A stretch of 64,000 bases of DNA from Microthyrium microscopicum (taxonomy: Eukaryota), in contig MU004239.1 in the NCBI GenBank assembly GCA_010405405.1, positions 1,442,722 to 1,506,721 of the forward strand, written 5' to 3'. The translations under genes were made by a program, and so were the position numbers. Below are positions 2,551 through 61,692 of the stretch, piece after piece; position 1 is the first letter of the stretch; each line of letters begins with the position of its first letter. Under the pieces are notes generated by a model. The model was given only the letters and a program-made list of their open reading frames with translations. It was not told the DNA's origin and did not search any database.

Positions 2551-3746
2551 TATTTAATACTTTGTAGTACTTATAGATATCTATCTTAATTAAACTAACT
2601 CTCTTCTATATATTTTTTAGTATCCTTTTAGGCCTAATTATACTATTCCTTAACCTAAATAACAAAATAGCGAATAGCGTTATTCTTAATTTTAGGGTTT
2701 ATAGTAGTAAAGATCCTAATATCTTCCTCTATAGCTACCTAACTAATTCTTATATACTTACTTTAATATATACTTAGAATTAACTTTACCTACTTAAACT
2801 AAGACGTCTCTATACCTATATGCTTAGATAACTACTCTTAAAATATATCTAACTCTCTATTAGGGTTAAAAATAATTAAATCTAGTAGCGCTAGTAGTAA
2901 AGGACTACTAGTAGGCAATTTATTAATTTTTAAGGTCTTAGGCGTCTTTATTACTACCCTCTCTACTATAGCATAGATATTTAATAGATTAAAGCTAAAG
3001 AATAGCTTATTACTATTAAAATTACCTTTATTAATTCTATTACTACTAGAACTAGAACCTCTTAGACGCGTATCTTAGGTAAACTATTTACTAGTAGTAG
3101 AGATAAAGATATCTATTAAAATCTTATCTAGAAGCTATATATTAAAGCTCTTATAAAGCGCTATTAGCCTAATAATCTCGCTCTAGCGGCGAAAGACTAA
3201 TAGATTTATAATAAGGTGCTTCTTACTTAATCTAAGAATAAAATAATGCCCTTAAATCTTTAAAAAGAGATACAATAGTTCGTAATAGCTATATTTATCT
3301 AAAAGCGCGAAATAGGTGTTAGCATAATTATATATTTAATTATTCTTAATAACAGCCTAAATCTTAGAGGACTCTATATCTTTTTAGGTCTAATTTTAGG
3401 CTTCTTAAAGTTCTTCTACTATCTTTAAAGTTTGTAGTGCTTTATTAGCTTTATTAATAGTCTATAATATCTCTTACTCTAGCGTTACTAGTTTAGCTAT
3501 TTTAGAAGAGATGTTAATATAGGTTTAGAAGCGTTTATTAATCTTTGCTAGCTAATATTTAATATTAGATCCCTCTTTATTAAATATAAATAGTATTAAG
3601 GAATCTTTAGTAGTTTTGTTAATAAGAAGCTAAAGATAGGTCTAAATTAACGTTATAGAGCCTATTAGATAACGTTATTCTCTAGCTTAAGAAGCTTTCT
3701 ATTAAAGAGCTTCTTTCTAACTATTAAAGAGGGTAGTATATACTTC

Positions 3747-4803
3747 TGTAATAATTCCTCTTTATAGGCTTGATAGCGGTCTTGCTCTAGAGGAGGCCTA
3801 CCCCGCAGTAGTGACGTCATAGTCACGTGCTACGTAATCTATGCGCAGATCCTCTACTACTTCAGCGCGCCTCCATAGCTCTAGATCTCTCTTCCCTAGC
3901 TTTGTATTCAATATACTATCTTAATCTACTACGGCTCCTATATCTCTAGGATCCTTATATAATGCAAAGCTCTTTAAACTTTAACTCCCGCGCTTACCCT
4001 ATAGGAACTAGCCATTAGTTTGAATAGGCTCTTCAACGCGCAAAGCAAGCGTATAGCCATTCCATAGCGTAGCGAGATCAAATTCTGCACGCAAATTTAA
4101 TGTGTCTATAGACGCTTAGACTACTACCTAGCCCCTACGCCTACGCGTATGCCCCACTAATATTTAAAAACAACTCCCCTATATTCCAAACTCCTTAATA
4201 CATTAGATGTTTATTCCTTAGAGTACTAACGCTACGAATAGTTCCTAAGAAGATTTTTAGGTGGTCCCTCAAGAGACAAGAAGAACTAGTGGTTAGCAGG
4301 ATCCTACTAAAATAATAGGAGCAGAAGGGATAAGAGCGTTAGTAGATTCCTAAAATTCAATTAGGAACGAGCGGAGAATTCTTAGCATTCTCAGCATCCT
4401 TGGCAATAAACGGCATTCCATGGCACGTTTGATGGCTTCATAATAACAACAAAATAGTGGTTTTTCACCTATCTTCATGGTTCCCGCAGGTTTTCCACTC
4501 CCATAAGCAATTTTTAGAGAAGGATCAGCAAGGCAGGAGCAGGTTTCAATTTAGTTCAGTTCAGGAGTACTAATTTTAAAGGAAGGCTCATATAATAATT
4601 CCTCTTCACAGGCTTAACAGCGGTCTTGCCCTAGAGGAGGCCTACCCCATAGCAGTGACGTCATAGTCACGTGCTACGTAGTCCGTGCGCGGATCCTCTA
4701 CTACTTCAGCGCGCCTCCGTAGCTCTAGATCTCTCTTCCCTAGCTTTGCATTCAATATACTATCTTAATCTACTACGGCTCCCGTATCTCTAGGATCCTC
4801 ATA
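3747..4803 (+). mobile_element. Nested miniature LTR retroelement (TRIM-like or internally deleted)
   Basis: Direct repeats of 213 bp at 3747-3959 and 4591-4803; left one starts TG; 5-bp TSD ACTTC at 3742-3746 and 4804-4808; purine tract AAAGGAAGG just before the 3' LTR; ~630-bp interior without recognisable pol. Confidence 0.88.
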
Positions 4804-6068
4804 ACTTCTATTATAGTTTTATTTAGTTATGCCTTATTCTTTCCCTTCTTAATGTTATATTTAACTATCTTGTAGTAAATAATTAGTACTACATCTCTAT
4901 TAATTTAAATTAGCGCCTTTAAACTACCCCTTAGTTATAATAGTAGCGCTAGAATCTAAGATTTCGTTAACTTATTAAATCTAGGCTATTAAGATCTCTA
5001 GCTAGCGTTTGCCCTATTATTTATCTCTTCTATGCAGCTAATTAAAGAGCTAGAAATTACTATTAAAGAGCTTTAATTTTAGCTCTATATTAGACTTCTA
5101 GCAGGTATCTAGAAGGTATAGATATCTTAAGATACTATAGGAGCTATTCCTAGAACTAGAGTATTATTTTAGCCTATTTTACCTATAATTTAAGTAGGTA
5201 TATCTACTAGCGTCTTAGGTATTAATTTATTAATCTTCTTCTTATAGGTAGAGCATTAAGTAGTAGTAGAATTAAGATCCACTAATATAGGGCGTTTATA
5301 TAATATTATTACTAGGAATAATAACGATAAGGCTATTTGCTAATAATTTAATAGGAATATAGCTCTTTTAGGCTTTCAAATAGTATAAAGATTAATTAAT
5401 TATAATATGTCCTTAGTAAGGAATTCCTACTCTAAAAACTACATTTTTAGCCTATCTTTAGATTACTAAGTAGGACTATAAAACTAGTATGTAGTTTGGG
5501 CCGCTAATAGTCTAATCATATATAAATTTATACTGTATTATACTCCTTGATCTCGTCGCGCGATCCAATAGGAATTCCTGCTTCTGTAGCAGAATTTACA
5601 GGCCAGATCTTGCCCTGATAACCACAGAACGCGCACCAGAGGTAGTATGGTGTTGAACCAGTAGTTGGCCTGAGATCAGGCTGGTGGTTGGTCTAGTATT
5701 TACAGCCTTGTGCTTGTTCCTAAATACATCGGGTAGGAAATCTGTGTCGTGCATGAGGATTGATGCCTCACCGTTCAAAAGAAATAAAGATTTCTGGTAC
5801 GGTGAAGCTTTCGATTTAGTTGCACATAGATAAATTCTCAAGGCGATCGATTCATGCAATGCAAAATTGCTGGAAGACACTTTCGCCCTGTGACTACGTC
5901 TAGTAACTCTAGAAAGGACGTACTGGGGATAAGTGCGACAGCCTTGGGTATAGTGGTGGCATAGTCTTGAATATTAGGCTCTTTATACCTGACCCGCGCA
6001 GAAAACAACGGCCTATAAACGCCCCATGTCTTTAGCAAGATCTTGATTCTCTTAAGGATGGTGATAAC

Positions 6069-9893: not shown

Positions 9894-12699
9894 ATCTTAC
9901 TCTGTCGAATTGTACGAACGTTAATGATTCTTGAACGATTACTTTTTGCCTTTTTGCCAAATGTCGCGACGAACATCTGCTACCAGTTTTCTTGCGATCT
10001 TTTGCCCTACGATGACACGAACGCGATGGTGGCTGTACGCTGATGAAAATCGTTGCGCGCGCGTTTCTGGTCCAATTGGGTGGCCTACAACGGGATGCAT
10101 AAACGAGCCAAGGAGTCGATATGCGGTGTTCTGACGTCAAATGTTTTGATTTATTGGCATGAGCGTCTTTGCGAATTGGGAGTGCTCACGGATGCTTTCG
10201 TTTGCATCCTCTCCACGAGGCTCCCGGGGGTATTTCCTAACGGCGACTTGAAACAATCCGGCATATCGGCTATGTCCCAAGGCTTCCGTAACTGGCGTTT
10301 TTCGGTACCTCTACTAGGAACAGATATTTAGCATCACCGGCTATTTCTGGAGAACGCATCGTTTAGATTCCTGTCGTTCGTTTGGTATCCCATTGTTCTG
10401 CTGCACGAAATGAAAACGTTTGATTTAGTCCTCGCGAGGACACTCCATCTCGGACATCGTCGCTCTCCGCATTCGCTACTGAGAACAGATGGTATTCGGT
10501 GTTCTGAAACTATTTCTTAACTGTCTGTTTACTGCATCTGTTTGCTGGATTAGGTACGGTTCGAGATATCCCTGTTATAATAGTCTATTAATCCAATGTT
10601 CTAACAAATGCTTCACGGACTTACAAATATTCTACTGACCCTCATGTAGGGGCACGCGTGAGTCTCGAACTAATTCCCTGGTCTCCAGATCTCAGATCTG
10701 CGGAATACCAGCACCTGTTTTCATGGAGATGACTTTTGTTTCATACCCAGCTCTTGCTGCATCTTGCATAACAAACCCTCATATATTCAAGTGTCAAAGC
10801 ATGCCGCTTTAGGTCAGCCTTGTAAGTAACCCCTTTAGGTATTGTTTCAGGGTCGACTGCATCGTGACATAATCATAAGGTTGGAGTTATAGGAGTGATG
10901 TTTGGACGCGAGATTGGAAAATGTGGGTGGCTGGGAAGCATGTCGCTCAGACGGAAACACGGGCATTTTCGACATCTACGCGTTATTAAAAACGCGTCTT
11001 TAGCTTGTCCTACCTTTAACTATATCATATAACCTCTTTCGCGATTGATGATAGCTCCACGGCAAACAAGCATAGCGCGTAGTATGATTATATTAATCGG
11101 GATTTGTAGGAGCTGTTACCCTTGATAGCAGATCGTCTCCTCCTACTTTATTATCTTTTGGATCCTACCAGCTACATACTAGTGAAAAGTGAGTAATGCT
11201 TAATTTACACTGGTTGTGGTAAAGCAGTCGATATTTTTTTTGTCATTTTCTAAGATATTAGGTAGTCGAGACTCATTCGAGAGCGGACTATTCAACGACG
11301 TGATTAAGGTATGTTTGTGAAGTTATCGTGCAGCCATGTCTACAGTCTGCCAGTGCTCTGAAAAGCTCAATGGGACAATTGGGATTCTTCTTAGCCATTA
11401 ACACGTTGTATAATACATGAGAGTTTAAGTTGAATCTGTGGATTCTAGAAGTTGAGAAATGTACTAGGTGCTTGACCAGTTACCCGGAAAGAGTTGTGAT
11501 ATAAGAAAGACAGGTTTATTTCGCCCCGAACTATCAATGATTTACCAATGATTCAGTCGCTTAATGCTCTGTGCAATGACAGTGCTTAACAAATACGAGA
11601 AGCAATATTTAGCTCTTTTATATCTATATTGGCTGGAATACGAAATCTGCGCTAGCTTTGGTAATCTTTGGATTGGTCTCTTATGGCGGTTCCAAATCAT
11701 AACCAATTCTATTGATTAGTCGTTTGTACGTCGATCTTCATCAATATACTAAGGTACTTCAGAAAACCTTCTCCCAATAGAGGACTCTTTCTATTTTCAA
11801 TCTTTTCATGATGACAGAATCTCTGAAATAAGAACATGAATCAATTGATTTGAGAGGCTCATTTTTGCCTCTGGAAAGCTGGCAACGGTATGGCAATATA
11901 AATGGCGACCTCCTATCGACTCTGATAGCTGCCACCAGTGCTGTTGATTCAAAGGTGCTATACTTCCCATTGTATTCGATCAAACTATCAAGTATGAAAC
12001 ACCTTCTTTGCAAACAGAGCACTTACTTAAAGATCGTAGCGTCTGGGAACCAACGAGGTTGATAGAGCGCGCCACGTATTTTGCTGACCTGTTGACTGTC
12101 ACCAATTTCGAATTTGGATAACCTAACCACAGCCAAGATACTACTGTTAATCGTTGCGCATATTTTCATTGCTACTGTGTCTCTAAGTAGTAAATAAGGC
12201 GTAAAATCGCTGTACTTGAGGATATTTTATTGAGCTAACATCTTGGTCGCTGAATCAAATTACTACGGGGTTGACAAGGGCCACAAGGCTGAACCTCAGC
12301 CTGATAGGTGGTTGCGAGAAGTAGCATTTGGTAGTTTCGACTTGGAAATGGGTACGACTTTGGTCTCACAATATCAGGCGAACATTCTCTTGTTATCATT
12401 GATCCAAATTCTCTTGTGGGTTTTCTCCAAGACCTGAATTCACATACAGTAAGCTTTTGGTGTAACAAAGCTATACCAAGAGTGACCAAGCATGTAAACA
12501 CTGCAAGTTTAGTCGTTTGCTCTCAGTAAAAACAGATTGCCCTGTGATCCAACCATCGCAAGCTATATCTATTCCTCTATTCTGCATTCTTGGAAGATTT
12601 ATTATCTACCGTTGGCAATATACTCCTTTCTGATAGCAAGTCAAGTGTCGTGACCTGACTACAGCGCTGATGCGGACTATCAGAACAGGCACTATCAGA

Positions 12700-27267: not shown

Positions 27268-29049
27268 ATGAGTGCGCCAAACAACCTTGGTTCAACCAAA
27301 GATGAGAAGCCCTCTTCTACGCTAGATGAACCGGCTGGGGACTACCGAGATTTTGGTAAAGAAGAAATCGAAATGTCAGAGCAGTTCCTCAACATACCAG
27401 AAATACACCGATACCCAAGCCCGGACACACTTTCGGAACTTTCCATGTACGGCGATAGAGTCTGGTCAGCATCTACTATGCCAAATCCTCATTATCAAGC
27501 AGATGAAAAGGACAGTGGAAGAAGACATGGAGTTACTGGATTTCTTCATTCCTTTTGGGGTCGCAATAAAGGATTGGTATTAGTTTTGATTGCTCAAATC
27601 TTTGGTGTCCTGATGAATGTCACGACAAGACTTCTGGAACTCGAGGGAAATAATGGCAAGGGCATGCACCCTTTTCAAGTATGAGCTGTAATTGCATGGC
27701 CTCTGAGAGACTTGCTGACGGTTATAGATTCTACTTGCAAGAATGTTCATCACAGTTGTATTGGCATCATTGTACATGTACTATACCAAAACACCAGACT
27801 TCCCACTTGGTGCAAAGCCAGTTCGCAAAATTCTTGTTGCTCGTGGCCTAGGCGGATTCTTTGGGTAAGATGTTCCCAGAAACCATACACCTCTTGACGA
27901 CGGCCGATGAAATGAAAACTACTGTTTCTCCATGGCACTCGATGGCTATTATAGGATGCTTTTCTAATGGCGTGCTAAGGCTCCACCAAATGCGATGGGT
28001 GCCTGGGTGCTTCATGAAATCGCCACGAAAAAACTATCTGGCCTTTTCCAGAACTGTTAGCTCTGATAGATATCTAATACTGACGAATCTCAGGGTGTTC
28101 GGAATGTATTACTCCCTGCAATACTTGCCACTCGCCGATGCGACAGTCATTACCTTTTTAGCTCCGGGAATGGCTTGTTGGTAAGAATTTGTGGTGTTGG
28201 CTCCGATCGTAATTTCATACTGACAATTCCAGGGCATGCTCTTATTTTCTGAAAGAACCGTTTACACGAACAGAACAGATTGCTGCTCTTATTTCTCTCT
28301 TTGGTGTGGTTCTTATAGCACGTCCGGCCTCACTGTTCTCCTCCAACGCAGATCAAGCGACTGAGCCCCTGGCTGCTGCTTCCATTGGAAATACGACGAT
28401 ATCTGAGCCGGAAGATAGATTTTCCTACGATAATGTGACTCCAGAACAAAGAATTATGGCCGTCATGATGGCAATGCTGGGCGTTTTCGGGGCGGCTTGT
28501 GCCCTTACAACTTTAAGATGGATCGGAAATCGCGCTCATCCACTCATCTCCGTCAACTACTTCGCTACCTGGTGTACCATTGTCAGTGCCGTTGCGATTT
28601 TGTTTTTCCCTGGTGTTGACTTTGTCTTGCCGGCCAACTTAAAGGAGTGGACCCTGTTGGGTTTTCTTGGAATTTGTGGTTTCATCATGGTCAGTTAGCC
28701 GTCAGAGACCAACGGCTTGTAAGACTGACATTACTATTCCTAGCAATACCTCCTGGCAGCAGGCTTAGCTGTAGAAAAGTCTTCCAGGGCTACCAACATG
28801 ATTTATACTCAGATGCTGTTTGCTTTGGGCTTTGATAAGCTCATCTTTGGCACAAATCCTGCTCTTCTATCGATGGTAGGCTCCAGTTTGATATTGTCTT
28901 CGGCGATATACGTTGCCATACAAAAAGCGAACAATCAAGTGCCTCCTACGTCCAAGGACCCTCGGTCAGTAGATGCTAGTGAGGAATTGGGTTTAGTCCA
29001 ACATGTAGACTCTGAGGATTTAGATGCAAGTTCAAGTAGATCACCATAG
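27268..29049 (+). CDS. EamA/DMT-superfamily drug/metabolite transporter
   Basis: Multiple TM segments; ARGLGGFF, YSLQYLPLADATVITFLAP, LKEPFT, MIYTQMLFAL; four introns including 27865-28093. Confidence 0.88.
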
Positions 29050-29666
29050 GAATGATTATCTGATGAGCATGCCAATTGCGTGGTACTGAAGTAAGTGTCT
29101 ATGCTGAAAAATATATAAGCACCTACTGGGGGCTCTGATTGCTGCTCCGCTTCCTAACTCCCTGTTATAACAATATCGAATCTAGACAAGTCTCATACTC
29201 TCCAGGGACAAAATGAGTGAGCCGTCTCGGTAGGAGTAGTCGTTGGAATGGCTCACTTATTGACTCCCCAAGGAGCCATGCCACTAGGATCAACGCAATG
29301 CTTACGGGACACTTAATCTCATTATGCGCCCAGACAACAAAATCGATTATAGTGCTAATACTGCGTAGTCTCAGAAATGTACGCTTGCTTTATCTGACTT
29401 CCCACCACAAAGACATTTGGGGTTTCTTTGTTGGATGACCTTGATATTCTACAATGGCATTGAGTTTTGATAATGGCATCGATTTCTACAAAGCCTTTGT
29501 GTTTCCTTGTTCATTGCTCTGGTAGAGTACACTTATACTCCACAGCATGATGAACATTAAACATTGCTCAGCTTGCCATCGACCTAGGCTCTATACCCAG
29601 TGCATTTCTCCTTCCTCAGAGAAAGCTTTCGAAAACATCACAGTAATAAGTGCTTCAAATATCTCC

Positions 29667-31045: not shown

Positions 31046-31279
31046 TGCATCGGCCTTGAAGGTTTGGATGAATTGAGAAGAACTGATAATGGGATGTAAA
31101 TTCTGCTTGTTGAAATATATAATTGGAGGCTTGCCTCCAATCATTTGTCATTTTGGTCCTGTCTAATGTTGCTGGGGGTCGAGAACAGAAGATAGCTAGG
31201 GAGCAAAATCCGACGGGCATATTGGGCGCAGTTTTGAGGACACATCATGTAACCGTGAAAGCTTGGCAAGTCAATTAGC

Positions 31280-31490
31280 TTAGCCCCTCCGGCCTAAGGA
31301 GGCCCGTCCGGCAGGACCCCAAAGCGAAGCGAAGGGCTAAAGAAGACGAAATAAAATCTGTTTAAATTCTTGGCCTCTCCGGCCTAAGGAGGCCCGTCCG
31401 GCAGGACATTTAAAACCATAAAATACGATTAAATAGCGGCCGCCAGCCAATCAAGTTATGAAGAGGCAGGCCTCTTCCCTCGGGGGCACC
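31280..31490. repeat. Cluster of GC-rich double-hairpin elements in AT-rich spacers (possible mitochondrial-type insert)
   Basis: Identical 31-mer CTCCGGCCTAAGGAGGCCCGTCCGGCAGGAC at 31287-31317 and 31377-31407; GAAGAGGC-AG-GCCTCTTC hairpin at 31460-31477. Confidence 0.7.
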
Positions 31491-31713
31491 ACGGACTACG
31501 TACTGTATCTGACCTTGATGTTGCTAAGAGGGAAGTCTTCCAGGAGGTATGTCAAACAGTATTGGGGAGCTCTTACCTTGCGGTGTCTAAAAATAGACAC
31601 CACCTACAACAAAATTCGAAGCAAAGTTCTGTACTCATTGACGACACAAATATGTAAGAAAAATTGAATATGATGGATGTTAAAATGAAGCTGAGATTGT
31701 GATTAGTTCAAGC

Positions 31714-32755
31714 TTAACCTTTCCATACCGCGGGACCTGGCAGTGAGTATAATTTCCTGTCCGCTATGTCAATTAACTGCGCTGTCACTTTGATCATTCC
31801 ACTACTCACCCTCCATTTGCATGCATGTTATATGTCATACTGGGATCGGTTTTGTGATAGGCGCCTGGAAATGCTACTAGAGGACCTGGAGTGCCCGACC
31901 CGGCGCCAGAGACTTTGACTTGTCCACAGGCAATGTAGAGCTATATCGTCAGTCAAACTAAGTTTAGGAAGTATATCGTGAGATTATGTACCTGTGGTGT
32001 ACCTGGCTGGTGCATTGCGATGTGCTCTATACGCACTAAATATTCTCCTGCCGGCGTGGCATTCGGAATTTTCGCACCTAGAATTCGTCAATAAAAGATT
32101 ACGATCAGAGGCTCGAATCTAACACCCCCGAAGAGACCAAATGGTGTCTTCGTGATGAAATCACAGAACACCCATTGTACTCGATGGGGGCCATCAAATG
32201 CGATTGGAAATATGTTTGTTTTGGTTCCGTTAGATGTCATCACAATGTGATTTGCCACGGCCCACTGGGAGTGCTTACCGCCTTCCAATTTACTAAATTG
32301 CATAGATCCCCCATTTCCAGAAACTGTGCTCTGTGCAATTTTGAACCACACATCTCCCTTGGGCTCCCACTTGTCAGCACTCTGACCGGCGGGAACCTTG
32401 GCCATGTAGAAAAGTAGAGGACCTGGATGAAAGATTCCAGCATTGGATTTGAAGTTTACGGTTGCTCCAGCTGACAGTGGGAAGACTCCAGCTGGCTTTC
32501 GAGATCTATCTTCATAGCAAGCCATAGCAGGACTGGAAAGATCTAGAACAGGGCCATTCGAGTAGTGATTAGTTGTCATTCTCACGAATTGCCATTCTCC
32601 TGTAGTGTTGCTATTGACAATGAGGTTTGGGAAGGTATCTGTAATAATCTATTAGCATGTATGCTTCCAAAAACTACCGGTTCTGGTACGAGACTCCTAC
32701 AGTGACATGAAGCTTGCAAGGGCAGTAATGCCACAAAAGCTGTAGTTAGCTTCAT
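31714..32755 (-). CDS. AA9 (GH61) lytic polysaccharide monooxygenase
   Basis: Signal peptide followed by N-terminal His (HY|TFP), HPGP, WFKI, GEYLVRIEHIAMH, PQ|LYIAC, PGPAVW. Confidence 0.92.
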
Positions 32756-35980: not shown

Positions 35981-37031
35981 ATGGCACCCTCACCGCGCCA
36001 GCTGGTGTTACTTTCTTGTCTCGCAGCCATCTCCATGGCGGCCTGCCCGAGGCCGATTCTCCAGACCGCGTTGGACAATTTCATTCAAGTGGCAGAAAAG
36101 CCATCTGGAGCGTCACTAAAGCTGGCAGCTGGGGCAAAAATGACACAAAACAACAGCCCGATTACATCTTTTGATCAGTCGAAAATTGCCAAGTCATCGG
36201 GATTTGGCAAAGCCTTCAAAATCGATGTTCTAGATGAGGAAGCTTGCACCGTAGCAGTGATGCGAACTCCAAAGATAGATGGACAACTCGAATTGTTCAG
36301 TGCGCGTATTAAGGTTGCTCCAACGGGAGAAATCCAGGAGCTCGAATTATACAATGCCGGGAAGGGCTCTCATATGCTGTTCAAACCCGAAGGTCTACCA
36401 AACGAAGCGCCTGCATTATGGTCGTCCGACGCCCCTGCTACACATGAAAGCCTGGTGAAGATCATTGATTCTTACCCGGAAGGAATGGAAAAAGGAAATG
36501 GTAGCATCACGAAAGCATCTCCCACATGCAACCGCTTCGAGAACGGACAGGAAATGGGAGTCGGAGTTTGTAACAAGTTTCCGTTCGAATACCCTGTTGT
36601 GTACCGACGATACTATGCCGATACAAAGACTGGAGTCGGTCTTGGAGCCTTTTTGTTCAGCACGCTGAATGGTTCTAAAAGGAAAGCGATGGGATTCAAG
36701 GCACTTTGGCTTCAGTAAGCTTACCCCGTGCCAAATCGCATTTATTGAGAGGATTCAATTGAACCAAACAACAAATCTCTTACTGTTTTCGGTGGAAGCC
36801 ATAGCAATGGATCAGGAACGCATTGCATGGCAGCCATCGAGGGCGATGAGAGATGCACCATTTCACCGCGAAAAGGCGAAACGGTCTTTTCAGGGGTGCT
36901 AAGTCCAATCGTAATTCACACTGACAAGTTCTAGTGAGTACTTCAAAGTAGAGAAGGGACAGATTGCAATGATCGCCGCGGTGATGAACAACGTCGAAGA
37001 TAACTTCAAAGATGTATGGAGCCCTGCCTAA
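35981..37031 (+). CDS. Secreted protein of unknown function
   Basis: Signal peptide, then ACPRPILQ; intron 36715-36934 gives WLH|EYFKVEKGQIAMIAAVM..DVWSPA*. Confidence 0.75.
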
Positions 37032-37735
37032 GTCCGCGGAAAGGACCCGAGGTATGATCAATATGGGTGGGTAGTATAGGTACGATGAACAGAGCCATGA
37101 CTCGGAATCGGAAAATTTTGGACTTAGACGAAAGTGCAACCACATGTTATGTTGCCGGGTAGGCCGCAATGCGCTTCCGTACATGTTTCATGCCCCGACA
37201 AGAACGAAGATATCAGCTTTATCGTTCTCTAAAATGACCACCACCTTTCTTTTCTCAAAAGTCCAATTTTGAGAGTCCCGTTGCATGTGAAGTACTGGTG
37301 GAATAGTCCTTGGCACCCTCAGAATCACTGGAGAACCATAGCCGACCAATTAGGAATATGTGTAAGCATACGACAAGAATACATGCGGCCGAATTGTTAC
37401 ATCAAAAATTGACTTAAACAGGGCGAGTATAAACAATCTGGGAATGGGCGTCTCACGATCACGTTCACCACCCATATGCCGCTGTGAAACAATCTAAAAG
37501 TCAACAAAACGGGCCAATCAAAGTTCATGTTCAAATCCGACGTGCCAATTATGTTTGAATACACTGTGACAGTTCTTGATCGATAAACAATGACAAGCGA
37601 AAAGAAAAGAACCGTGATAGCACCGAGGTACATGTGGTTATCGTGATCAGATACCTAGAGTATTAGACATAAATATCATCGATTGAACACACGACGCTGA
37701 GCTACGCGACTATTCATCCCCTTCAGTCATACAAA

Positions 37736-38491: not shown

Positions 38492-41400
38492 CTATCTAGC
38501 GAAACCACGCCCGCGGCCCGATGGCTTGCGGACTCGATCCGCCATGGTGGAGGCTCCTCGAACGCTAGTACCCGAACCTCTAGTTGGCGCATTAGAAAAA
38601 GACCATGTTGGAGAGGGCAGTGTTGCATTGTTGGAATTGTCAGATGTAGTTACCTCTGAAATAGATGTCGCTGGACTCGTTGAAGGTTGAGCTGAATTTG
38701 TCTCGCTCGCTGTTTTGGTTGCGGTGTGAGTCTTCTTTCCGAAGCGGCTTTTCTTCGAAGTAAGCGTGAAACCTTCGACTCTAGTGGATGCGGACTCTGC
38801 TGGAAGATTCCCGCTAGATATTTTAGGAGAATCACTGGGGCGTTGGAAAATACTGGATCCTCCTAGTGGTTGAGAGTATGCGTGGGCCAGCTGTGTAGAA
38901 TCGTCTGTTTGTTGAGAAGGGGGAAATACTTGCTGCGGAGGATGAGTTGCTCGCTGAGTAGTAGAAATAGCATGGTGATCTTGGATGGGGAACTCTGGCG
39001 AGGCTTCCGTGCTTTGGCGAATATTAAGTCCTCGTGGCTGGGAAGAGACCTCGATGACCGGTCGATTATTGTTTGCTTGCTGAGGAGGTTGAACCACTTG
39101 CTGCGAAGTCTGGATTGCTCGCCGAGCAGACGAAACGGTCGTTTGATCTCCATTAGGCACATTTGGAGAAGCTTCAGCGCGATGGCGAACATTTGCTGGC
39201 TGAGAAGCGTGACCAATTTGCTGTGGAGCGTAGGCTGCTTGCGGAGTCGAAGGATTGCCCACACGTTGAGGTTGATCATTAGAAGGTCGTTGATTGAAAG
39301 CTTCAGTCAATCGCTGATCCAGAGTACCAAGATCGTGGGATCCTCCAGAATTGGTTGATTGACCAACTGTGATACGATTTTCTTTTAACGGACCGCGATC
39401 TGATGGTAGCTGTGCATGGCTCTCTGTACGACTCTCCGGACGTGAAACAGGATAACGCTCAGGATTCTGCTCTGGACGGCCAATAGGGGTCCTGTTAACT
39501 CCAGTAACCGGGTTACGTCTTGCGTCACGAGGCCCTCTACGGGGAGTACGCTTAAACTCCCGATCTGGTATGAGTTAGCTTAGGCCTCTCTCATGATAGG
39601 TACTTTGAAAGACATTGGCTATCAAGATAGACAAAATAATTGGTGTGCTCCATCGACTTCGATGCCTCCCACATGGGACGCTCTAGTATTGAGTGCGTTT
39701 GGTCCCATAAAGGGCGTTTAGATCGGCCAAATTCATCAAATGTAATGGCAAATATAGCACCTTCTGTTTAGTAGCGTTCGTGGGAGCCATCGAAGTGGAT
39801 GAGAGCGCGCCATCATTTTCACTATCGGTTTTGTGACTATCACCAAAGCTATGCTCTGATATTGTGAAGTTCCTAAGACACTGACGTTGCCAGCCCTCGG
39901 CAAAAAGGACATTGTACGGGGTTTACTTACTAGCTCTATAATTAGGGGGAGGCTCTATCTCCTCAAAAGAAGGCGAACGGGCGGGTTGCGGCGGTCCACG
40001 ACCACCCGAGAACGACGAGCGTGGCATATTTGGAGCTTGAGGTCGGTCATAGGCACGACGGTATGAAGCTTCTACTGGTCTACGAGAACCAGAACCAGTG
40101 CGGTTGGCGGAAAACGTATTGTCGCGCGGTCCTACCACTTCCGCATCTGAACGGGCTAGTTCGAGAGCTTCATACAGGGAAAGTGAACGCTCTGAGCCAT
40201 TCGAGTTCTGGGCACGACCTGAGTCATTACAACCGTTTGAAAGTCTCTCCTCTACTCGTGTATGGTCCATTTGAACTGATCGAGGTGCTCCGTGGTTACT
40301 ATCGCGATTATACTGACGATCATCGCGATGATGCAAGCCATGAGCGCTGGAGACATTGGATCGTTGAGAAGCTCCGGAAGGAACCTGAACGTCGTCAATT
40401 ATGCGAAATCTGACCACCGCAGAATTGGTTGACAGGACGCAGTGTAACTCATTTCCCTTGACTTCACTCCACTTCGCACGACGTTGGTAATCCGCAACCT
40501 GCGATCTCCTTATCGACGGTACGGCCTCGGAAAGTGACTGCGGACGCGAGACATCACGGAAAACTGCTGGCGAGTACTGCTGGGTAGCTTGTACGGATGC
40601 CGTCCCTGCCTGCACCTGACCAGGAGGCAGAGAAGCCGACAGAATGTTGGCAGAAGCAACTGGTTTGGCTGGAACATATTGGCTAGAGTTGGCTATCCCA
40701 TGCTGCTGCGGTTGGGCCGAAGCTTTTCTAGAAGCAAGTTGTCCTGGAGGGAATGGCACTGTGTCCGGTGCTTTGTCTACAGCAAGCTGCTCAGAACCTT
40801 TAAGCTTTGGCTGAGGGAGTCCTTGCGAAATCGTTGCCATCATCTCATCTCGCACAACGTTCATGTAGCCTGGAGTTGGCTTGACACTATCGCCACCGGA
40901 AGAGTCAGACGAATCCTCGGCAGCCGCGATTGCTTGTCTGGAGAGTGCTTGCACAGAAGCTGAGGATGTTGATTGAGCCACAGAGGCTGTCGTTACTGGA
41001 GGTGGGGTCGTAGAAATGGGTGATGAGACTATCAACGGCAATGTATTGGGTTTTGGAGATTTGGAAATCTGGAATTTGTTAGCTTTTAGCCTCATGCAAC
41101 AATCAAATCATCCCAGGCTACTTCAGTGTAGGGTTTATGCCACCTGAATGAATCGCTTGCCAATTGATGGATGAGCCCGCATGGTGCTGCTTTGGGTCAT
41201 AATAAGTGAGCCGAATCGACGAATATTCCCATCGATTACGTTGTCGGCCATAACACTTAATAAACAGTGACTGCTTCAATTACCATCGTATCGTCTGTTG
41301 TAAGTTTTGCGTGGTTGATGGGAATTGAAGCTGCTGCTCTTTAAGAAGTGTTATGGTAGCCATCGTGGTCTATGGACCCCATCCAAACGGCTCACTTATT

Positions 41401-44400
41401 TTGTCCCTGGAGATATTGCAAAAGTAGGGGCCACTTACAATTTGAGGATGCGATGGGCCAGCGGCTACTACTGGACTGGCAACTTCATTGACTTCTGGAG
41501 TGAAATATCCAGGCAGTCTTCTCGCAGACTGAGTAAACAATGCTATCTGTTCTCGCTGCAGTGCTGCCGGATTTTGCGGGTGGAAACCGAAGACTCCATG
41601 CCTCGAGGAAGAATGTTGCATAACAACTTCAGACTGGTGTTCAGGCGGTAGTCGACCGATCAGGTATTGTTGCTGTTCAGCCCAGGTATGCTGCCCCATG
41701 AAAACCTGTCCTGATGGTTCTTGTTCCGGTGGTCGAAGGCGTGTCATCTGCGTGATCGAAAACCAATCACCGAGTTGCGCGAACTTGATCATCGCATCGA
41801 GCTTCTGCTGATGTTCAGCCGTTAATGGAGGAGGTTTCTTTTCAGCTCGCCAATCATCTGCATCGTGCAAGCTAGTAATAAGTGGCTTGAGGCGATGTAT
41901 TTCTACAAGGCCATCCAAGATGGCATCTTTTCCGTCTAGGTGCATAGCCGCTCCTTCTAGCATTGGAGCGAAAGCAGTTGGATGCTTCAGGTATCTTTGA
42001 GCAGTCACAGAGACTCGGTTCCGCCAGTGCTTTTGCTCTAGAACTTGACCCGTAAGCTGAATTTTGCGAGTGCATTGATTCAGCAGCTGCTCCTCGAAGG
42101 TTCCTTCAGTCGCAAAGCGATAGACAAACACCGGCTTCTCTTGCCCAAGGCGATAGGCTCGACCAATGGCTTGTTCTTCGACCTGCGGATCCCAGCCAAA
42201 ATCGTAGATGATTACACGATTTGCGCCGAATATATTGAGACCGGTTCCACCTGCTTTTGTAGAAATCAAAAGGACCGAGCTTGCACCACTGTTGAAATTT
42301 TCGATCAGCTGGGGCCGGGCTTGAGCTGCGACGTTGCCATTGATCTTTTCATGCTTTATGTTTCGTTCTCGAAGTACAGCGGAGAGATATTCGATAGTTT
42401 CTAGACTCTGTGTAAAGCATAGCGTTTTGTCCCCCTGGGCCTGGAGGTGGTCAGTGTAAGATTACAATCAGAGCTAACACGCCCAAAAGACCCTTCGGTC
42501 TTTTCGCGATAAACAAGTAAAACACTTCTTGCATTGAATGGCGCCCATAGCACTCGAATAGTGAAAGCCTTCTATGGGAACCATCAAATGTGATGGGAGA
42601 TGTGAGGTTTCTTGGTTGTGTTGAATTCCCGAGGAACACAACAGCCATTGTCTTTCAGGGTCAATACATAAACCGCCGCACCTCCCATCACATCCAATGG
42701 CATCAATAGTACTCGACTGACGAACACATCTTATGGTAGCCATCGAGTACGATGAGATATGCAATGCTGGTATTGAGTTGTATGTCGTCAAGAAATGTAA
42801 TTTAGCAAGGGAGAATCTTACCATAGAGTGGTTGACAATGTGTAGGAAACACATTGTCTTGTTGGAGTGAATAACATCGCGCTGTGCAGCTTTTTCAATC
42901 AGGTCGTTGACTTCAGAATCTTCGAGGCCAGGGAACTGTTAGAGTGTATTAGTTTGAAGTCAGCCACCAATGCAACAAGTCATAACTCACACTAGGCCGT
43001 TCTGCAGGCTTCTTGCCCTCCCGAAGAATCATATGAGAACTGAATATAGCTGGGTGATTGAGAATCCAGGTAAGGACTGGACCATGAGTTAATACATCGC
43101 CAATCTGTAGCAGCTTTCGGGCCTTAATGGTTTCGAGAAGATCAAGGTATGCGGAATAGACCTCGACCTGAAGTTGCGTTAACTGGATGTTGATTATGAA
43201 TTCCTGTTTTGGAGGTAAGTGTCCCTTAGAAAATGTTAGCTCAGAGTGCCATCAAGTTGAAAATTTCCCATCAGGTACTATGGCAGCATGGCCATCATTT
43301 CTCGGGTTCGAGATAATCTTGCAAACGGAATGAGAACATGATGTCAATGTCGTCAGAGAGTTGATAGGGATGTATTCACGCGAGGAAGTCTTACCTTGAG
43401 TACCGAGGCGTCCTTTCGATGAACCTTTGGTTTGAGCACTTGCTCCAGCGCTTCCAAAGTCAATCTAGCTTCGGTTTCTTCGTATTCGGCGCAGTCGGGA
43501 TTGCTTCCAAGTAAGATGGGTGTTTCAAAGATGGTCTTGAATTCCCGTAAGTTTCCAAGGTAACCTGGAGAAACAAGATCGATCATCGAAAAGTACTCTA
43601 GGAGGTGATTAGAGAGTGGAGTGCCAGTAAGTGCCACTCTTCGCTTGGTTTCGATTTTGCATACGGCTGTGCGAGCCTGCGTGGTGGTCTTTTTCACAGT
43701 ATGAGCTTCGTCGAAGATGACCAGATTGCTCTTGGTCAACAGAAACTGTCGCGTCAGTTGCGTCGCAGGGACCAATACATCATCGAGTGTATCGTCTTCA
43801 AGGTCGGGTGTAGTGCTATTGACCATCGGGACTGAGTTGTTTAACATGCCTTGAGATGGACTTTTGGTCAAGTTGGTGAACATGGTGTATCCAATGATCA
43901 GAACACCACCGTTGGTGCCCCAGTCTTCAATGAAGTGGTCTCGGTATTGGTCTCCAGCTTCAATGCAGTAGATTCTACCCAAGATTTGGGTAGACCGCTT
44001 GGGGAGCCATTTCACGAATTCAGCGTCCCAGTTGCGTATCAAGCTTGGCGGACATACTACCAACGTACGGGACTGTTGAAGCGCTGCCGGGATTTGATCA
44101 CGAATTCCTGGATCTCGGGATCGTATAGCCTCTTGTATTGTAACGAGGAGGGTGATAGCCTGCATGGTCTTCCCAAGGCCCATAGTGTGCGACAAAAGAC
44201 AGCCAGATGCCATAGATTCATCAGGCTGAGCGACAATCTCACGCCAGAGGAACTGCAAGCCTGATATCTGATGATCCTTGAGTTCAGCTGCAGCATGTTC
44301 ATTCACGTAAATATATTCCTGGCCATCCTCTTTTCCAGGGTTGATAACAATTGCGCTGGTCGATCTTATTTCCTGCGAATTCATCTCTGCCCGATATTCA

Positions 44401-46276
44401 GTTTCCTCCAAACGACGCAACGCTTGTGCCTGCGTCTTATTCTTTTTCATCGGTCTGGAGAGATCTTCTGTTGCCTTGCGTTTCTCTGTCTGATCTTGCT
44501 CTGAAGATGCTTCTTTGACAACCGGAAGTGAAGATCCCAAGTCGGGTATTTCTATTTCTGAGCTTTCATTGTCCGAGCTAGTCTCCGATGTTTCGCTTTC
44601 TGAATCGCTAATCGTGAGGTCGATTACCTCAATAGGTGGTTTGCTAAGAGATTTCAAGGCCAAGCTAGCAGGGTCGGGACTTGGAGAACGATCTCGCATG
44701 GTGATGTCTTCATCTTCGACGTCAGATGAGTTGATCATTGTGTATTCTGGTTCATCTGGCACTGCCATGTCTCGATCAGGAGTGTTTGATGCAGATGGCA
44801 TGGTGCTGTTATGCTTTGAGCCATGTGGAAGATCTTCAAGCTCTGTGGTCGGCTGTACGATCGCTGGCGTAAATGGCTCGGTTTCCTTCTGGGGATCAGC
44901 GTCTTCGGATTCTGCCTCTGATTCAGTATCAAGTAGCTCTCCCTCGGAGTCATCATCGCCGCCAGTGTGTTTTCGAGCGGGTTTTGGCTTCCGCTTTGGA
45001 GCTTCGACTTGAGGAGGTGGAAGTATTTGCTGAAGAATGTCTAGTTCAAAAGATAGTTTCTGGATGTCAAAAACAGTAGCCTCCAAGACACCACACTGCT
45101 GCCGTAGCTTCTTCTCATTTCTTCCAGTGGTACCGTCGATAAGATCTTCTCGAATTCTGACAAGTCTGGATTGGAGAGATTTCACTTGCTGACAACGAAT
45201 TTCGCAGGCCACATCACGCTCCAATTGACGCCGAAAACCGGTGTAGAGTTTTAGGGCGTTCGACTTCTGAATAGGTAGGCGTCGTGAGGTCCAGATGCTC
45301 TTGAGCTTCTGGATCTCGTCATCCACAATAAAAGTCGCATCAAACGGAGGCAGGGTTTCTGGCTCGATCTCTTCTTCTTCTTCTAATTCTCGCGCAAAGT
45401 TGCTGCTTGTGTCTGATGAGGCGTCCTCTTCGTACTCGGGTATATTCACGTCATGAATGATCGGGTCAACATGGTGTCGGCTGAAATTGACGGTGCTTAT
45501 TTCTCGACGTATGGTGTCCCAGCTATCGAGAAGTCTTCTATAGCCTTGACGAAGATCTATGTGCGATCTTTCTGGATTGTGTAAGGCAAATTCCTAGCAT
45601 TTATTAGTATTGTATCACCAAATCAAAAGTGACGGTTGTGAGCAACGGCATGGCAGAATAAATGGCCTACTCCCATACACGCTAATGGCTTCCACCCCCT
45701 CTATTCCTTAGCGGGTGCTTTATTGCCATTGTCTACGATTAGATGTCAAGTTTTGAACGTCTTCTATGGCAAAGAAAGCACTCGATAGCCCAGCGAAACG
45801 CATGGTAGCCATCGTAGTGGATGGGAGCGCGCCATTTATTTTGCAATGCGGTTGGTGATCTCGATTAGGAAAAGGGTTGGGATGCAGATACATACCTCAA
45901 TGGATTCGCCATCCGACGAAGCACCGTCAGAGGCATCGATCTCAGATAAGTCAGGACTTTCGAAGCCTGGCTGTCGAACAATATGCTCCGTAGAAGCGAT
46001 TGGCTGCAAAATTGCTCGACGCTGGGAAGACTTGGCAGCAACTTGGGGGGAAAACTTGGCAGCAACTTGAGTAAATAGCTTAGCATGACCAGCTACGCAC
46101 AATTGCGGATCTTTTTGACAGGCAGCAAGAAGAGTGGAGGTTATCTGGCCATCTTTAGGCAAAGTTCTTGCCGTAATTAGGCCAACAATTGCTGGTACTG
46201 CAGTGTTGGAAAGCCAGGGAAAGAGAACGCCCGAAGCCCAGTCGTTTGGGTCATGAGATATGCCGCCTTCTTCCAT
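38492..46276 (-). CDS. SNF2-family ATPase of the ATRX/Rad54-like group, probably the SAD-6/ATRX orthologue; 7 exons
   Basis: GCLLSHTMGLGKTMQ, DEAH, ALTGTPLSN, STKAGGTGLN, QAIGRAYRLGQ. Introns 45594-45895, 43225-43394, ~42937-42990, 42441-42821, 41069-41438 and 39565-39930 join the listed ORFs. Confidence 0.87.
39623..39831. mobile_element. Fold-back (MITE-like) element, full-length copy in an SNF2 intron
   Basis: Arms TGGTGTGCTC-CATCGACTTCGATGCCTCCCAC and GTGGGAGCCATCGAAGTGGATG-AGAGCGCGCCA; strongly similar to the 59636 copy. Confidence 0.8.
41194..41407. mobile_element. Fold-back (MITE-like) element in an SNF2 intron
   Basis: Perfect 13-bp stem AATAAGTGAGCCG 41201-41213/CGGCTCACTTATT 41388-41400; inner CCATAACACTT/AAGTGTTATGG; right end TTATTTTGTCC shared with the family. 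Confidence 0.78.
42525..42760. mobile_element. Compound fold-back element with four arm motifs in an SNF2 intron
   Basis: 12-bp stem ATGTGATGGGAG/CTCCCATCACAT; CCATCaaatgtGATGG, CCATCacatccAATGG and TATGGTAGCCATCgagtacGATGA motifs. Confidence 0.7.
45643..45854. mobile_element. Fold-back (MITE-like) element, full-length copy in the first SNF2 intron
   Basis: GCAGAATAAATGGC..CTCCCA..ATGGCT pairs with AGCCAT..TGGGAG..GCCATTTATTTTGC; inner CGGGTGCTTT/AAAGCACTCG; ends CAACGG..CGGTTG; 212 bp. Confidence 0.8.
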
Positions 46277-47521
46277 GATATGGCGTGCGGATACTCGAGG
46301 GTTGTGTTGTGTTGTTGAGTCGTTTCGTCAGCTTCAAATCTAAATGATGGGTTGTTATATTTCCCTAGGAATGAAGCTTATTGGAGAAGAAGTAAAAAGT
46401 CGAATAACAGAGGTAAGAGAATGTGTGTAGTTGCAGGGACTGGGAGAGGTAGAGGCACCGACTGGCAGGCAGTGTACTATGTTGCCTGGAGCAAGGAGGC
46501 CAGCAGATATATAGTACCTCAGTTGCTCCAGTCGAGGGTCCAGTGAAAGCGGAGCGAGGTCAGAAGCTGAGTTGGCTCATGTAGTGAAATAAATCAATTT
46601 AAGATACGTGAAAGTTCAGGGCTTGAGAGATGCTGATGATCAGTGTTGAGGTTGAGGATGGATAAACAGAGGTACAAGACGCGTCCAGATCCATGCGGGG
46701 AGTTTTGACGCGGTGGGAGAAGGTAACGCGGCGTGTAAACAAGCATGGAGAATAGCTTGAGGTCGTTCTTGCCAGAAGATGGTGATTTGGCCTGCGAGTT
46801 CTGGGCATCTGGCAGTCACAGATGAAGAACAGTCCATAATAGGTTAAGGCCGCCTAGACTATGAAGAAGTCGCGACTCTGGCCTCTATATGAACATGTAC
46901 AAATGCCTAGATGCTTCTTAAGACGAAGAAGCGGACTATGAATTGTAATTGTCCGCTATTCAATGTTCAAGAATCAGAGCACGAGTATTCGGGATTGATA
47001 GTATGGTTTTTGTTCAGCTGCTGCTCCATTTGCCGTACTTCTATCATTCCAAGCTCTTTTCCAATTCTGTTGTTCGGGGCAGTCGATAACCTGTCGAAGC
47101 AACAGTAGTATGGCTCCAGAGAATTGTTGTACAATAGATATTGGTCTCCTCAACAGGGATAAGACTCTCGTCTCAACGGCGGCGAAGTAGGGATGACTGC
47201 AGACTGGCGCTTGGACTTGCAGTTGCATATGGATGTGGTCGATATCAAAATGGACGCCACTAAAATCGTGGCTGCATTTTTCGGCAGGCGCTATGAATTC
47301 GGCCCGACCCAGCTCCTTCCTCCGTATGTAGGTAAATCGTTACCGACTCGGCCGTTCCTTCTTCATCCAGCAGTTGCTCCTGCTTCATTGTTTTCAGCGA
47401 GCACTTGCCATTTCCAACACTGTGTAAAATATCAAAAGACACAAACAACAACAAACCAACACCTCAATAATTCCTTCAAACGTCGAATTCAGATGTTTTC
47501 CACCTGTAATTTTTCAGAGGT

Positions 47522-47677: not shown

Positions 47678-47920
47678 CCAGCTTTCCTTTGCGTAAGTAT
47701 CCCTCAGTCTCTTGGTTTTTGAAGATTTTGCTAACAATTCTCCCAGCTTTTGGCTTAGATCAAGTGTAGTATCTGTTCTTACGACCTTAACCGGTGGTAT
47801 GGCTCCAAGGAGCTCATTCAACTGTTAAGCCACTTTTTACAACCAGCTTGCGCACTCCCTGGGCATGCCCATAGTCGCAGGCACCGTGTTCTCTGTCTTG
47901 CACTACTTCAGAGTGACGCA
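47678..47920 (+). ncRNA. U2: U2 snRNA gene interrupted by a 54-nt spliceosomal intron (47693-47746)
   Basis: Removing GTAAGT..GCTAAC..CAG restores TTTGC|CTTTTGGCTTAGATCAAGTGTAGTATCTGTTCTT; branch-site recognition GTAGTA 47766-47771; stems IIa, IIb, III and IV with TTGCACTAC loop. Confidence 0.93.
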
Positions 47921-48473
47921 AATCAATTTTATTTTTCATTGCAGTCTTTGCCTTGCGCAGGGATGTGAGGAAGAAATCTTCTTTTGATTACTAGGTCCTG
48001 GATAACAAGCGTGCCAGTGTCAGTGCCATAAGTGCATAACACATAAGATTGTGAGGGTGCTTTGAACCTGCGATAGGAAGCTTCTGGTGTTGTATCCAGA
48101 TGAAAGCTTTGCTGCCTATCAGATGATTGGCAACACTCTAATTTATTCCATCCTATGTGAGATGAAAATGTGTCTTCCTTATGGGGCATTTAGAAGCAGT
48201 CGAGGGTCTTGCGCATTCAATAAGCGCGATGTTGAATGCCGTAGGTTATCTCAGAGTGCCTTTTATATCGTCGACCGTGGGACCCTCTCAATTTGGTCGT
48301 AGTTATAGCAGTAGCCCCAGCGCCTTCAAAGTGACATCTAGATTCGTAAGCACGATAAAACTCCATATAAATATGAGGCTCTGGTGACGTGCTAAAGCAC
48401 CAGCATTGTTCCCTGTCATCCGCTGTATCCATTTCCGATCTCGCAAACATTTCAACCACAACTCACATCATTC

Positions 48474-59635: not shown

Positions 59636-59848
59636 CAACCGAAGGACAAAATAACTGGCGTGCCCCCATCGACTTCTATGGCTCCCATCTGCTACGCTTT
59701 ATTATCGAGTGCTTTATTTCCTAAGGACTACGTTTATTCTACCACTATTGATCGATTATGATGGGAGTTATGGTATTTGCTGTTTAGAAGCGTTGGTGGG
59801 AGCCATTGGAGTTGATGAGAGCACGCCAGTTATTTTGTCCACCGGTTG
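59636..59848. mobile_element. Fold-back (MITE-like) element, best-preserved copy, intergenic
   Basis: Perfect 20-bp inverted repeat GGACAAAATAACTGGCGTGC 59644-59663/59821-59840; ends CAACCG/CGGTTG; 213 bp. Confidence 0.85.
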
Positions 59849-60465: not shown

Positions 60466-61210
60466 GGTGAATTGTATTGAACGATGTTCTTGTTTGGATT
60501 GGGAAGGTCGTTGAAAGGTATGATTGATATTGGTGTCTTTGGTAGTTGATGGAGAGATGAACTGTGTTATATAGGAGATATCTTCACACATGGAATAGGC
60601 ACTTATATACCTCCCATTTCAGCTGTAGAGAACTATTGAATCAGTGACTTCGTCCTTGATCGACGAGTATAATCCTAATTCCATTGTCACATCAAAGATC
60701 TTCAGAATGTAACCTCCTCAGAATCGGTCTCGGTGTTGTACGATGATAGTCAAGCCTGACTGAATCCTGCTTCTCCACTATACTAACTCAAAATGAAGCT
60801 GTGCAATAATCTGTAGGTGCTTTGCAAGAAGGATTATAACAATGGCTGTGGAGATATTCAATATGCTGGTCGAAAATCATGAGTAGGGGCCAAGTATAGG
60901 ATTCCTCGGTCGTCACCGACCATGGGTACTTTGGTACGCGTAATAAAAGTACAAAATTAGACGAAATCCTTCGAGCTTGCCTTGAGTAATGCATGTTAGT
61001 GACTTCAGCGTATTGTAGCTACCTACCTAGGTAGGTATCTTTGGTAGATGATATTGTGTAGGCGTCAAAATAGATACAGGTAGGTACACACTTATCACGA
61101 ATTTGGAGACATGAAATGTTCACCTCGGCAGGATTCACCTAGCTATTACGCGACTTGTAATTCATCAACTTTCGGTCATGTTTTCCTCAAGCAAGCATAC
61201 TGGTTCCTTT

Positions 61211-61358
61211 ATCGAATGCGCTGGTAGTCATCGAATGCGCTGGTAGTCATCGAATGCGCTGGTAGTCGTCGAATGCGCTGGTAGTCATCGAATGCGCTGG
61301 TAGTCGTCGAATGCGCTGGTAGTCATCGAATGCGCTGGTAGTCATCGAATGTGCTAGT
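61211..61358. repeat. 19-bp tandem minisatellite, 7 full units plus 1 partial
   Basis: Unit RTCGAATGCGCTGGTAGTC at 61211, 61230, 61249, 61268, 61287, 61306, 61325 and 61344 (partial). Confidence 0.95.
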
Positions 61359-61692
61359 GAATGGAAACATGACGGCAAAATAAAATAGGTGCTTCAATGG
61401 AGTGCCAAGATCCCCCATGACCACAATCTTCGATGAGTGTTTTGTTTACCCGATGGCGTTTAGGCTTGCTTGGGTTGTTTGTTGAAATTAGGAGGATGAG
61501 AACAACCTCGTCTATACAGAAGCAGTAGTAGTAACCACCGCCATGGATAGGAACATTCCATTTGTTCTAACAGTCATTGAGATAGTCATTCGATATTGAA
61601 ATGCAATGGAAAACCGAAGAAAACATGTTATTATATACTTCGCCTAACTAAGTGCCGAACACTTTGATAGCTATGATACATGTATGACACTG

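Follow-up and report, generated by a model that had tools for sequence, protein, structure and literature searches.

The stretch of DNA analysed here, referred to as the window, comprises 64,000 nucleotides of contig C10 in the Microthyrium microscopicum assembly (37.1 Mb in 58 contigs). It contains a SNF2-like gene, a U2 snRNA gene (the only Rfam match in the window), several short fold-back elements that mostly end in CAA..TTG, and long introns that belong to a sequence family of their own (Table 1). Positions 1-6000 form an AT-rich block with RIP-type indices (1.68 and 0.23 at 2001-4000). Intron-split genes, the U2 gene and AT-rich blocks of this type are the signs of a filamentous ascomycete. 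The original prediction had named four copies of the fold-back element, here called A to D, and all four are present at or near the proposed positions and align in both orientations, with A being 73% like C over 204 bp. Two more copies, one full and one decayed, had been overlooked.

Table 1 Repeat elements, introner-like introns and genes in the window
Feature	Position	Strand	Remarks
MITE copy A, CAA..TTG family, 213 bp	59636-59848	+	TSD of 6 bp, one mismatch
MITE copy B, 212 bp	45643-45854		TSD of 5 bp, one mismatch; within spliced intron 45594-45895 (-)
MITE copy C, eroded ends	39623-39833		within intron 39565-39930 (-)
Copy D, 236-bp sister family, ends approximate	41187-41415		within spliced intron 41069-41438 (-)
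Fifth full CAA..TTG copy	11883-12094		absent from the original prediction
Decayed near-full copy	61367-61568		31.8 bits
Tandem array, about 8 copies of a 19-bp dyad unit	61210-61361		adjoins the decayed copy
Internally deleted D-type element, 77 bp	29198-29274		both ends present, core absent
Introner-like intron with two tandem cores, SNF2-like gene	42441-42821	-	101 and 113 bits; contig stops at 42441
170-nt intron with one near-perfect dyad	43225-43394	-	membership doubtful: seed of the first model, no match by an independent model
Introner-like intron	27865-28093	+	115 bits
Introner-like intron	32078-32278	-	89 bits
Introner-like intron	36715-36934	+	89 bits
SNF2-like host gene	38492-46327	-	frame of 2063 codons after removal of six introns
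U2 snRNA gene	47734-47927	+	Rfam match

Copies B, C and D each lie within an intron of the one SNF2-like gene. Contigs of a read run presumed to be RNA join across the B intron (45592/45895) and the D intron (41068/41439); at the C intron, contigs of the same run stop at the edges, 39564 and 39931, and no bridge is found. Four of the six introns of this gene clearly hold family members (three MITEs and one double introner-like intron), one does so doubtfully, and one, of 55 nt, holds none. An enrichment in introns, which had been put forward for statistical testing, is not seen genome-wide: 3 of 79 copies are intronic compared with 37 of 674 non-coding-like sites, as scored by a crude splice-signal heuristic with a reach of 150 bp and with 7 of 86 copies omitted for short flanks. 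The SNF2-like gene is therefore a local cluster and not the rule. The MITE as a maker of introns was considered and rejected, given that 1 of 79 empty sites lies within a long frame and that B, C and D sit inside longer introns.

Some minor repeats accompany these features. The 19-bp dyad unit of the tandem array also occurs in tandem arrays at L120 (1400-1620) and L143 (near 2180), and longer units with double dyads repeat at approximately 116-130 bp in L111 and L114. At 31144-31499 and 37124-37177 of the window the assembly contigs break and a second, diverged version aligns, which probably represents another repeat family; a 39-bp direct repeat lies at 31279-31317 and 31369-31407.

Two sister MITE families

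The CAA..TTG elements of about 213 bp are, almost beyond doubt, a MITE family of non-autonomous DNA transposons. The proposal of a MITE or fold-back family was borne out more firmly than a first look at the sequence could show, by target-site duplications (TSDs), hundreds of copies and subfamilies. An end-pattern search recovers 403 ends genome-wide (control 0), hence at least about 200 elements, and a model scan of 400 kb of unselected DNA (forty 10-kb regions at round coordinates) finds nine elements at ≥40 bits (10 hits, with one element split), which scales to roughly 800 genome-wide with a wide margin. Copy A as a query gives about 40 long matches among the 40 scored of 175 candidates. 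The family has a fixed size, full copies being mostly 211-214 bp long. Five subfamilies of 24, 16, 13, 7 and 7 copies were defined from 81 of the 86 full copies, after five with scores of ≤110 bits were dropped; their members are 91-94% like their own consensus, with nearest neighbours up to 98% alike.

Each element consists of a 27-bp end, a core, the inverted core and another 27-bp end, and the interior (positions 28-188) is thus two inverted copies of a dyad core of approximately 75 bp. The terminal inverted repeats (TIRs), taken as the outer 52 bp of the arms, are 79% alike on average and 75-96% alike by subfamily. Copy A folds with -105.3 kcal/mol (z -12), and 0 of 200 shuffles are as stable. 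A 105-codon frame overlapping copy A is without a Pfam match.

No clear TSD had been noticed in the window, because the 6-bp duplication at A and the 5-bp duplication at B are imperfect, with one mismatch apiece. Of 86 copies, 52 carry an exact duplication (5 bp long in 27 and 6 bp long in 25), compared with 17 of 7310 controls; if up to one mismatch is allowed, the count rises to 65 of 86 compared with 195 of 7310. An earlier, smaller set, from which one split copy was omitted, gave an exact 5- or 6-bp TSD for 24 of 29 copies; among mismatched pairs of flanks, 1 of 812 had one. The 5- and 6-bp TSDs are different registers, and both staggers are therefore real. Among the 52 copies with an exact TSD, the 5-bp targets lean towards purine-N-W-N-pyrimidine: with sites strand-symmetrised, the first base is a purine in 45 of 54 and the middle base is A/T in 44 of 54.

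Copy D had been assigned the same CAA..TTG ends as the other three copies, which proved wrong. It belongs to a 236-bp family with ends of the CTCT..AGAG type, and what we see are two sister MITE families, of 213 and 236 bp. In a search for the D family (40 scored of 55 candidates) the ends start with CTCT and both arms carry an insertion of 12 bp. The A model aligns with D along the length of D at 69.8 bits, and the two families share, in the same register, an A-rich box that occupies positions 10-19 counted from the end. Exact 5-bp TSDs flank 7 of 20 D-family loci and 5 more have one mismatch (controls 0 and 15 of 380), the 20 being those that remained of 24 loci after 4 that were not anchorable were left out.

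Each arm had been described as holding a CCATC-N6-GATGG dyad. The dyad is real but degenerate, given that the eight arm dyads in the four copies comprise one exact match, four with one mismatch and three with two. In the 400 kb of unselected DNA, CCATC-N-GATGG has 40 matches at a spacer of 6 compared with 8-20 at spacers of 2-5 and 7-12. Half-sites in the left arm are mostly conserved at 0.9-1.0 compared with 0.57-0.79 for the spacer; the right arm lacks most of this contrast, its spacer being conserved almost as well as its half-sites. It is plausible that the dyad is a putative site for a dimeric protein. The spacers had also been thought to stay largely complementary between the two arms of a copy. 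Across the 81 of 86 copies compared, no special complementarity is seen: 3.59 of 6 positions match within copies and 3.44 of 6 between them, which is less than the 79% identity of the arms elsewhere.

Two processes had been offered to explain that complementarity, selection on RNA structure and arm-to-arm homogenisation. Selection on RNA structure finds no backing in the dyads, for which changed pairs are still Watson-Crick in just 3 of 81 and 7 of 84 cases. Homogenisation is not borne out as an ongoing process in each copy, the number of mirrored changes being 15 compared with 10.7 ± 2.8 (p 0.087; private changes against 2000 permutations), but probably did occur at the founding of subfamilies. 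In one subfamily the outer arms are 96% identical, and the two arms of D group together in the tree of cores described below, which points to a likely copying of arms at the birth of subfamilies.

The copies had been said to keep CpA/TpG and to be short enough to evade RIP, and both statements are largely right. Their index is 1.46 compared with 0.23 in the RIP block of the window (0.23-0.25 in RIP blocks), and the median copy is hit at 2 of 28 CpA sites. Weak RIP is nevertheless present, with at least 6 hits in 13 of 81 copies. The C>T rate in the copies is 0.115 at CpA, 0.085 at CpG and <0.05 at CpC and CpT, with a 2.5-fold excess at CpA over CpC/CpT. A few 213-bp copies are heavily hit, at 11-17 of approximately 28 CpA sites (L015 725-932, L027 2599-2810, L080, L013 457-664 and L082). 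A close neighbour copy was rejected as the cause of RIP damage: several hit copies have one, yet the relation is not significant among central copies (p 0.17).

On contig C15 a MITE is split in two (L014 1501-2151 and L157 4211-4860, the same place), with positions 5-148 inverted and approximately 440 bp from positions 127-213; this is a small inversion with a breakpoint inside the element. A metagenome scan for the MITE gave 3 chance matches only, with the rest of the element absent, and a plasmid search gave none. Empty orthologous sites were not seen in three runs: one that may be the source itself, one that is RNA-like, and a DNA run too thin to reveal such sites.

By itself the MITE is ordinary in kind, and a new fungal MITE alone is routine. 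The 13 EFT MITE families of Epichloe festucae, in the part of their description available to us (PMC3227409), are likewise short, non-coding and fixed in size with TIRs and a TSD, and they likewise have tens to hundreds of decayed copies, mostly have no parent element that was found and are under the usual RIP size. Their TSDs, among the rows listed, are of 2, 3 or 8 bp, whereas 5 and 6 bp are about equally frequent here (PMC3227409). Compared with what that source gives for the EFT families, the elements described here also differ in that the whole element is a fold-back, that a mild CpA bias is present and that the interior matches an intron family (PMC3227409).

An introner-like intron family with the same core

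Tandem double dyads 19 bp apart occur at 51 sites genome-wide (control 0), many of them in long GT-AG introns with shared ends. One such intron as a query retrieves many relatives (40 scored of 63 candidates), and 29 of 30 introner-like loci start at GT. The consensus intron is 222 nt long and folds with -67.6 kcal/mol, a value that comes with no shuffle control. Among 19 introns of called length 190-245 nt the mean identity is 69% and the best pair reaches 84%. Column agreement is 0.6-1.0 inside the introns and mostly 0.3-0.5 in the exons, and the similarity ends at GT and AG. At least 5 duplicated bases are found in just 2 of 30 loci. At L168 and L188 (= L110), 6 bases are duplicated at the intron junction, which may be chance because the 3' end of the family itself supplies them. 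The ~222-nt introns are an old introner-like family without TSDs, the copies of which are no longer near-identical, and the window holds four or five members.

Similar introns are known from other ascomycetes. The ILEs of Dothideomycetes, as characterised in the part of PMC3609843 available to us, are also multi-copy and over-long, with canonical splice signals, a stable fold and seamless insertion without a TSD, and the sister (stw)introns of Hypoxylaceae, in the corresponding part of PMC8469720, have the same traits and no TSDs. Compared with the ILEs so described (PMC3609843), the ~222-nt introns are more decayed (best pair 84%) and their core is common to a MITE that bears TIRs and TSDs. 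In the accessible account of 10.1101/2022.06.06.494994, ascomycete introners are described without TIRs or TSDs.

The dyad core of the MITE also lies at positions 64-140 of the ~222-nt intron, a link absent from the original prediction. The intron model aligns MITE positions 28-98 with intron positions 65-134 and, inverted, MITE positions 188-100 with intron positions 63-151. The MITE model scores the intron consensus at 23.0 bits, compared with at most 2.6 bits for 300 full shuffles and at most 14.8 bits for 300 shuffles that keep the first dyad; the part of the intron beyond the first dyad scores 5.8-12.7 bits alone, and 15 of 19 single introns beat all of their own shuffles. By consensus, the distances from the intron core to the two A arms are 50/77 and 55/74, similar to the distance between the arms themselves (54/74). 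Self-palindromic positions number 52/76 in the intron core compared with 40/71 and 36/69 in the A arms. We also built an unrooted tree of 83 cores over 78 columns, from random copies (20 of 81 A and 12 of 20 D, both arms) and the 19 introns. The introns form one group (96/94), which is joined with the left arms of A (100/98). The distance separating the A family from the D family is similar to that found among the introns.

These alignments and the tree suggest that the dyad core of the MITEs and the introns very probably goes back to common descent. Because the core is a string of similar dyads, some of this resemblance may have arisen by convergence.

Origin of the shared core

We favour an explanation, with a probability of roughly 0.7, in which two sister families of cut-and-paste MITEs have a core whose origin is shared with that of the introner-like introns. 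MITEs move by a transposase that is supplied in trans. Here, a DDE transposase would bind each end at its A-rich box (positions 10-19), and probably also the subterminal CCATC-N6-GATGG dyads, and would cut the target with a stagger of 5 or 6 bases. The short copies would mostly escape RIP, and the long partners would have been destroyed by RIP, like the hAT copies described below, or lost. The core of the MITE and that of the intron would have one origin, most simply a transposon end taken into one intron, and the intron with the captured end would then have spread as an entire intron, through a mechanism that does not create a TSD. For this direction, from transposon to intron, we would put the odds close to even.

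The opposite order is possible, if unlikely: an introner-like intron would have come first, and an inverted duplicate of its hairpin core would have gained 27-bp transposon ends and become the MITE. The intron core exceeds the A-type cores in self-palindromicity, which fits this direction, as do the stronger decay of the introns relative to the MITE subfamilies and the resemblance of the distances between intron core and A arms to that between the arms. The tree, however, joins the intron cores to the left arm only, which is simpler if an intron took one already diverged arm, and the distance between the A and D families about equals that among the introns.

Both families could also be served by one element-encoded protein that binds the dyad and helps to move or target them, with new copies landing near old ones. 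We find this doubtful. Identical dyads stand at identical spacing in both families, tandem double dyads are found at 51 sites with none in the control, and four or five of the six introns of one gene hold members. The density of family members of any type is also higher beside a MITE, at 1.1 per 10 kb (24 members at 75 loci), compared with 0.33 per 10 kb (13 members) in the unselected 400 kb. Such clustering can, however, stem from open chromatin or relaxed selection, and no protein of this kind is known. The introns lack both TSDs and the terminal box, and their chemistry therefore differs from that of the MITE.

It is very improbable that there is no intron family at all and that the related introns are old introns of the ordinary kind with MITE debris inside them. 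This is what B, C and D amount to, the 90-147 nt that remain of their host introns after element removal giving no match to the intron model, and repeats inside ordinary introns are described in the available part of PMC3609843. For the ~222-nt family the debris reading is already largely refuted: the likeness runs from GT to AG through a 63-nt leader and a 70-nt trailer, neither of which has a counterpart in the MITE, and falls to about 0.3-0.5 in the exons. From this whole-intron likeness and the single group formed by their cores it follows that this family differs from the introns hosting B, C and D in not being repeated MITE debris. Selection on RNA structure, with the element kept as a structured intronic or non-coding RNA, is scarcely credible despite the very stable fold of copy A and the intronic position of three of the named copies, given the TSDs, the lack of intron enrichment, of spacer covariation and of dyad compensation, mirrored changes near chance and the absence of an Rfam match for three loci at E 0.1.

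A further proposal goes beyond the favoured explanation. The introner-like introns might descend from, and perhaps be spread or targeted by, the dyad-binding transposon system of the MITEs, which would then be a DDE lineage outside the present classification that cuts with a mixed 5/6-bp stagger. We offer this tentatively, as an outcome that is on balance improbable; if true, such descent would be a direct sequence bridge from the TSD-less ascomycete introners to cut-and-paste transposons, with a named candidate binding site.

Known introners and candidate transposases

DNA-transposon-derived introners, as presented in the available parts of PMC12130899 and PMC11282704, likewise tie introns to MITE-like elements. 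There the introner is the transposon itself or has a full-length intergenic twin, whereas here the elements are different, with different ends, and only an internal core is shared (PMC12130899, PMC11282704, PMC5647799). In PMC12130899, a survey of 2025 with 456 ascomycete rows, 29 of the first 30 are labelled 'Unknown' and 1 'TIR DNA'; one Zymoseptoria row is 'TIR DNA', as hAT, and the available part of that source gives no introner family for Microthyrium microscopicum. Intergenic intron homologs in Zymoseptoria are reported in the part of PMC5647799 at hand. These rows and intergenic twins mean that there is some precedent for linking fungal introners with DNA elements (PMC12130899, PMC5647799).

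What stands out here is a MITE pair with an unassigned, mixed 5/6-bp footprint and its sequence link to an old introner-like family. In the literature searched we found no paper on this MITE or on a MITE built on an introner core; subscription papers, Dfam and Repbase were outside the scope of the search. The core link may tie these introns to DNA transposons, and a MITE made of two introner-core copies gives a traceable introner origin as well as a motif that is testable for a binding protein.

Taken together, the TSD lengths and ends do not fully match any of hAT, CMCT, IS3EU and KDZ as these are described in the available parts of PMC12730594 and PMC10045372. hAT elements have 8-bp TSDs or, in hAT5 and hAT6, a lineage with animal hATs, 5 or 6 bp with one fixed length each; both of these lengths occur here, but within one family (27 copies with 5 bp and 25 with 6 bp) (PMC12730594, PMC10045372). 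The CMCT clade, including Transib and Plavaka, mostly has CA..TG ends and TSDs of 2-5 bp, never 6 bp, in the same accounts (PMC12730594, PMC10045372); it was rejected although the A ends fit CA..TG, given that 25 of 52 TSDs are of 6 bp and that the D ends misfit. Transib is also reported absent from fungi in the part of PMC5751038 available to us. IS3EU resembles the present elements in its 6-bp TSD and its presence in fungi (PMC12730594, PMC10045372, in part), but it needs TA..TA ends together with 6 bp and was rejected, the ends here being CA..TG and CT..AG and half of the TSDs being of 5 bp. Kyakuja, with 7-bp TSDs and no TIRs, and Dileera, with 8 bp, are both unlike the elements here, and the CT start of the D family is unlike hAT5/hAT6, CMCT, IS3EU and Kyakuja/Dileera alike, as far as these accounts describe them (PMC12730594, PMC10045372). 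The two TSD lengths in nearly equal number, together with two types of terminus that share one end box, may point to a transposase outside the superfamilies compared.

All 19 hAT dimerisation hits have in-frame stops, and RIP therefore acts in this genome. At the 15 of 19 loci that were covered, no MITE-like end lies within 1.5 kb of the hit, and a RIP-blind search also found none. Two scans for the ends with RIP-tolerant patterns found 81 matches and 1 match, MITE-like in every case inspected, with no autonomous partner, and a RIP-blind end scan of about 1 Mb returned one known copy only. IS1634-like elements have 5-6-bp repeats and C ends. An IS1634-like partner was considered and rejected, with 0 candidates for the transposase model NF033559. 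Twenty unpaired ends include an inward-facing pair 8.6 kb apart on contig C7, of which the right one looks MITE-like over 89 bp.
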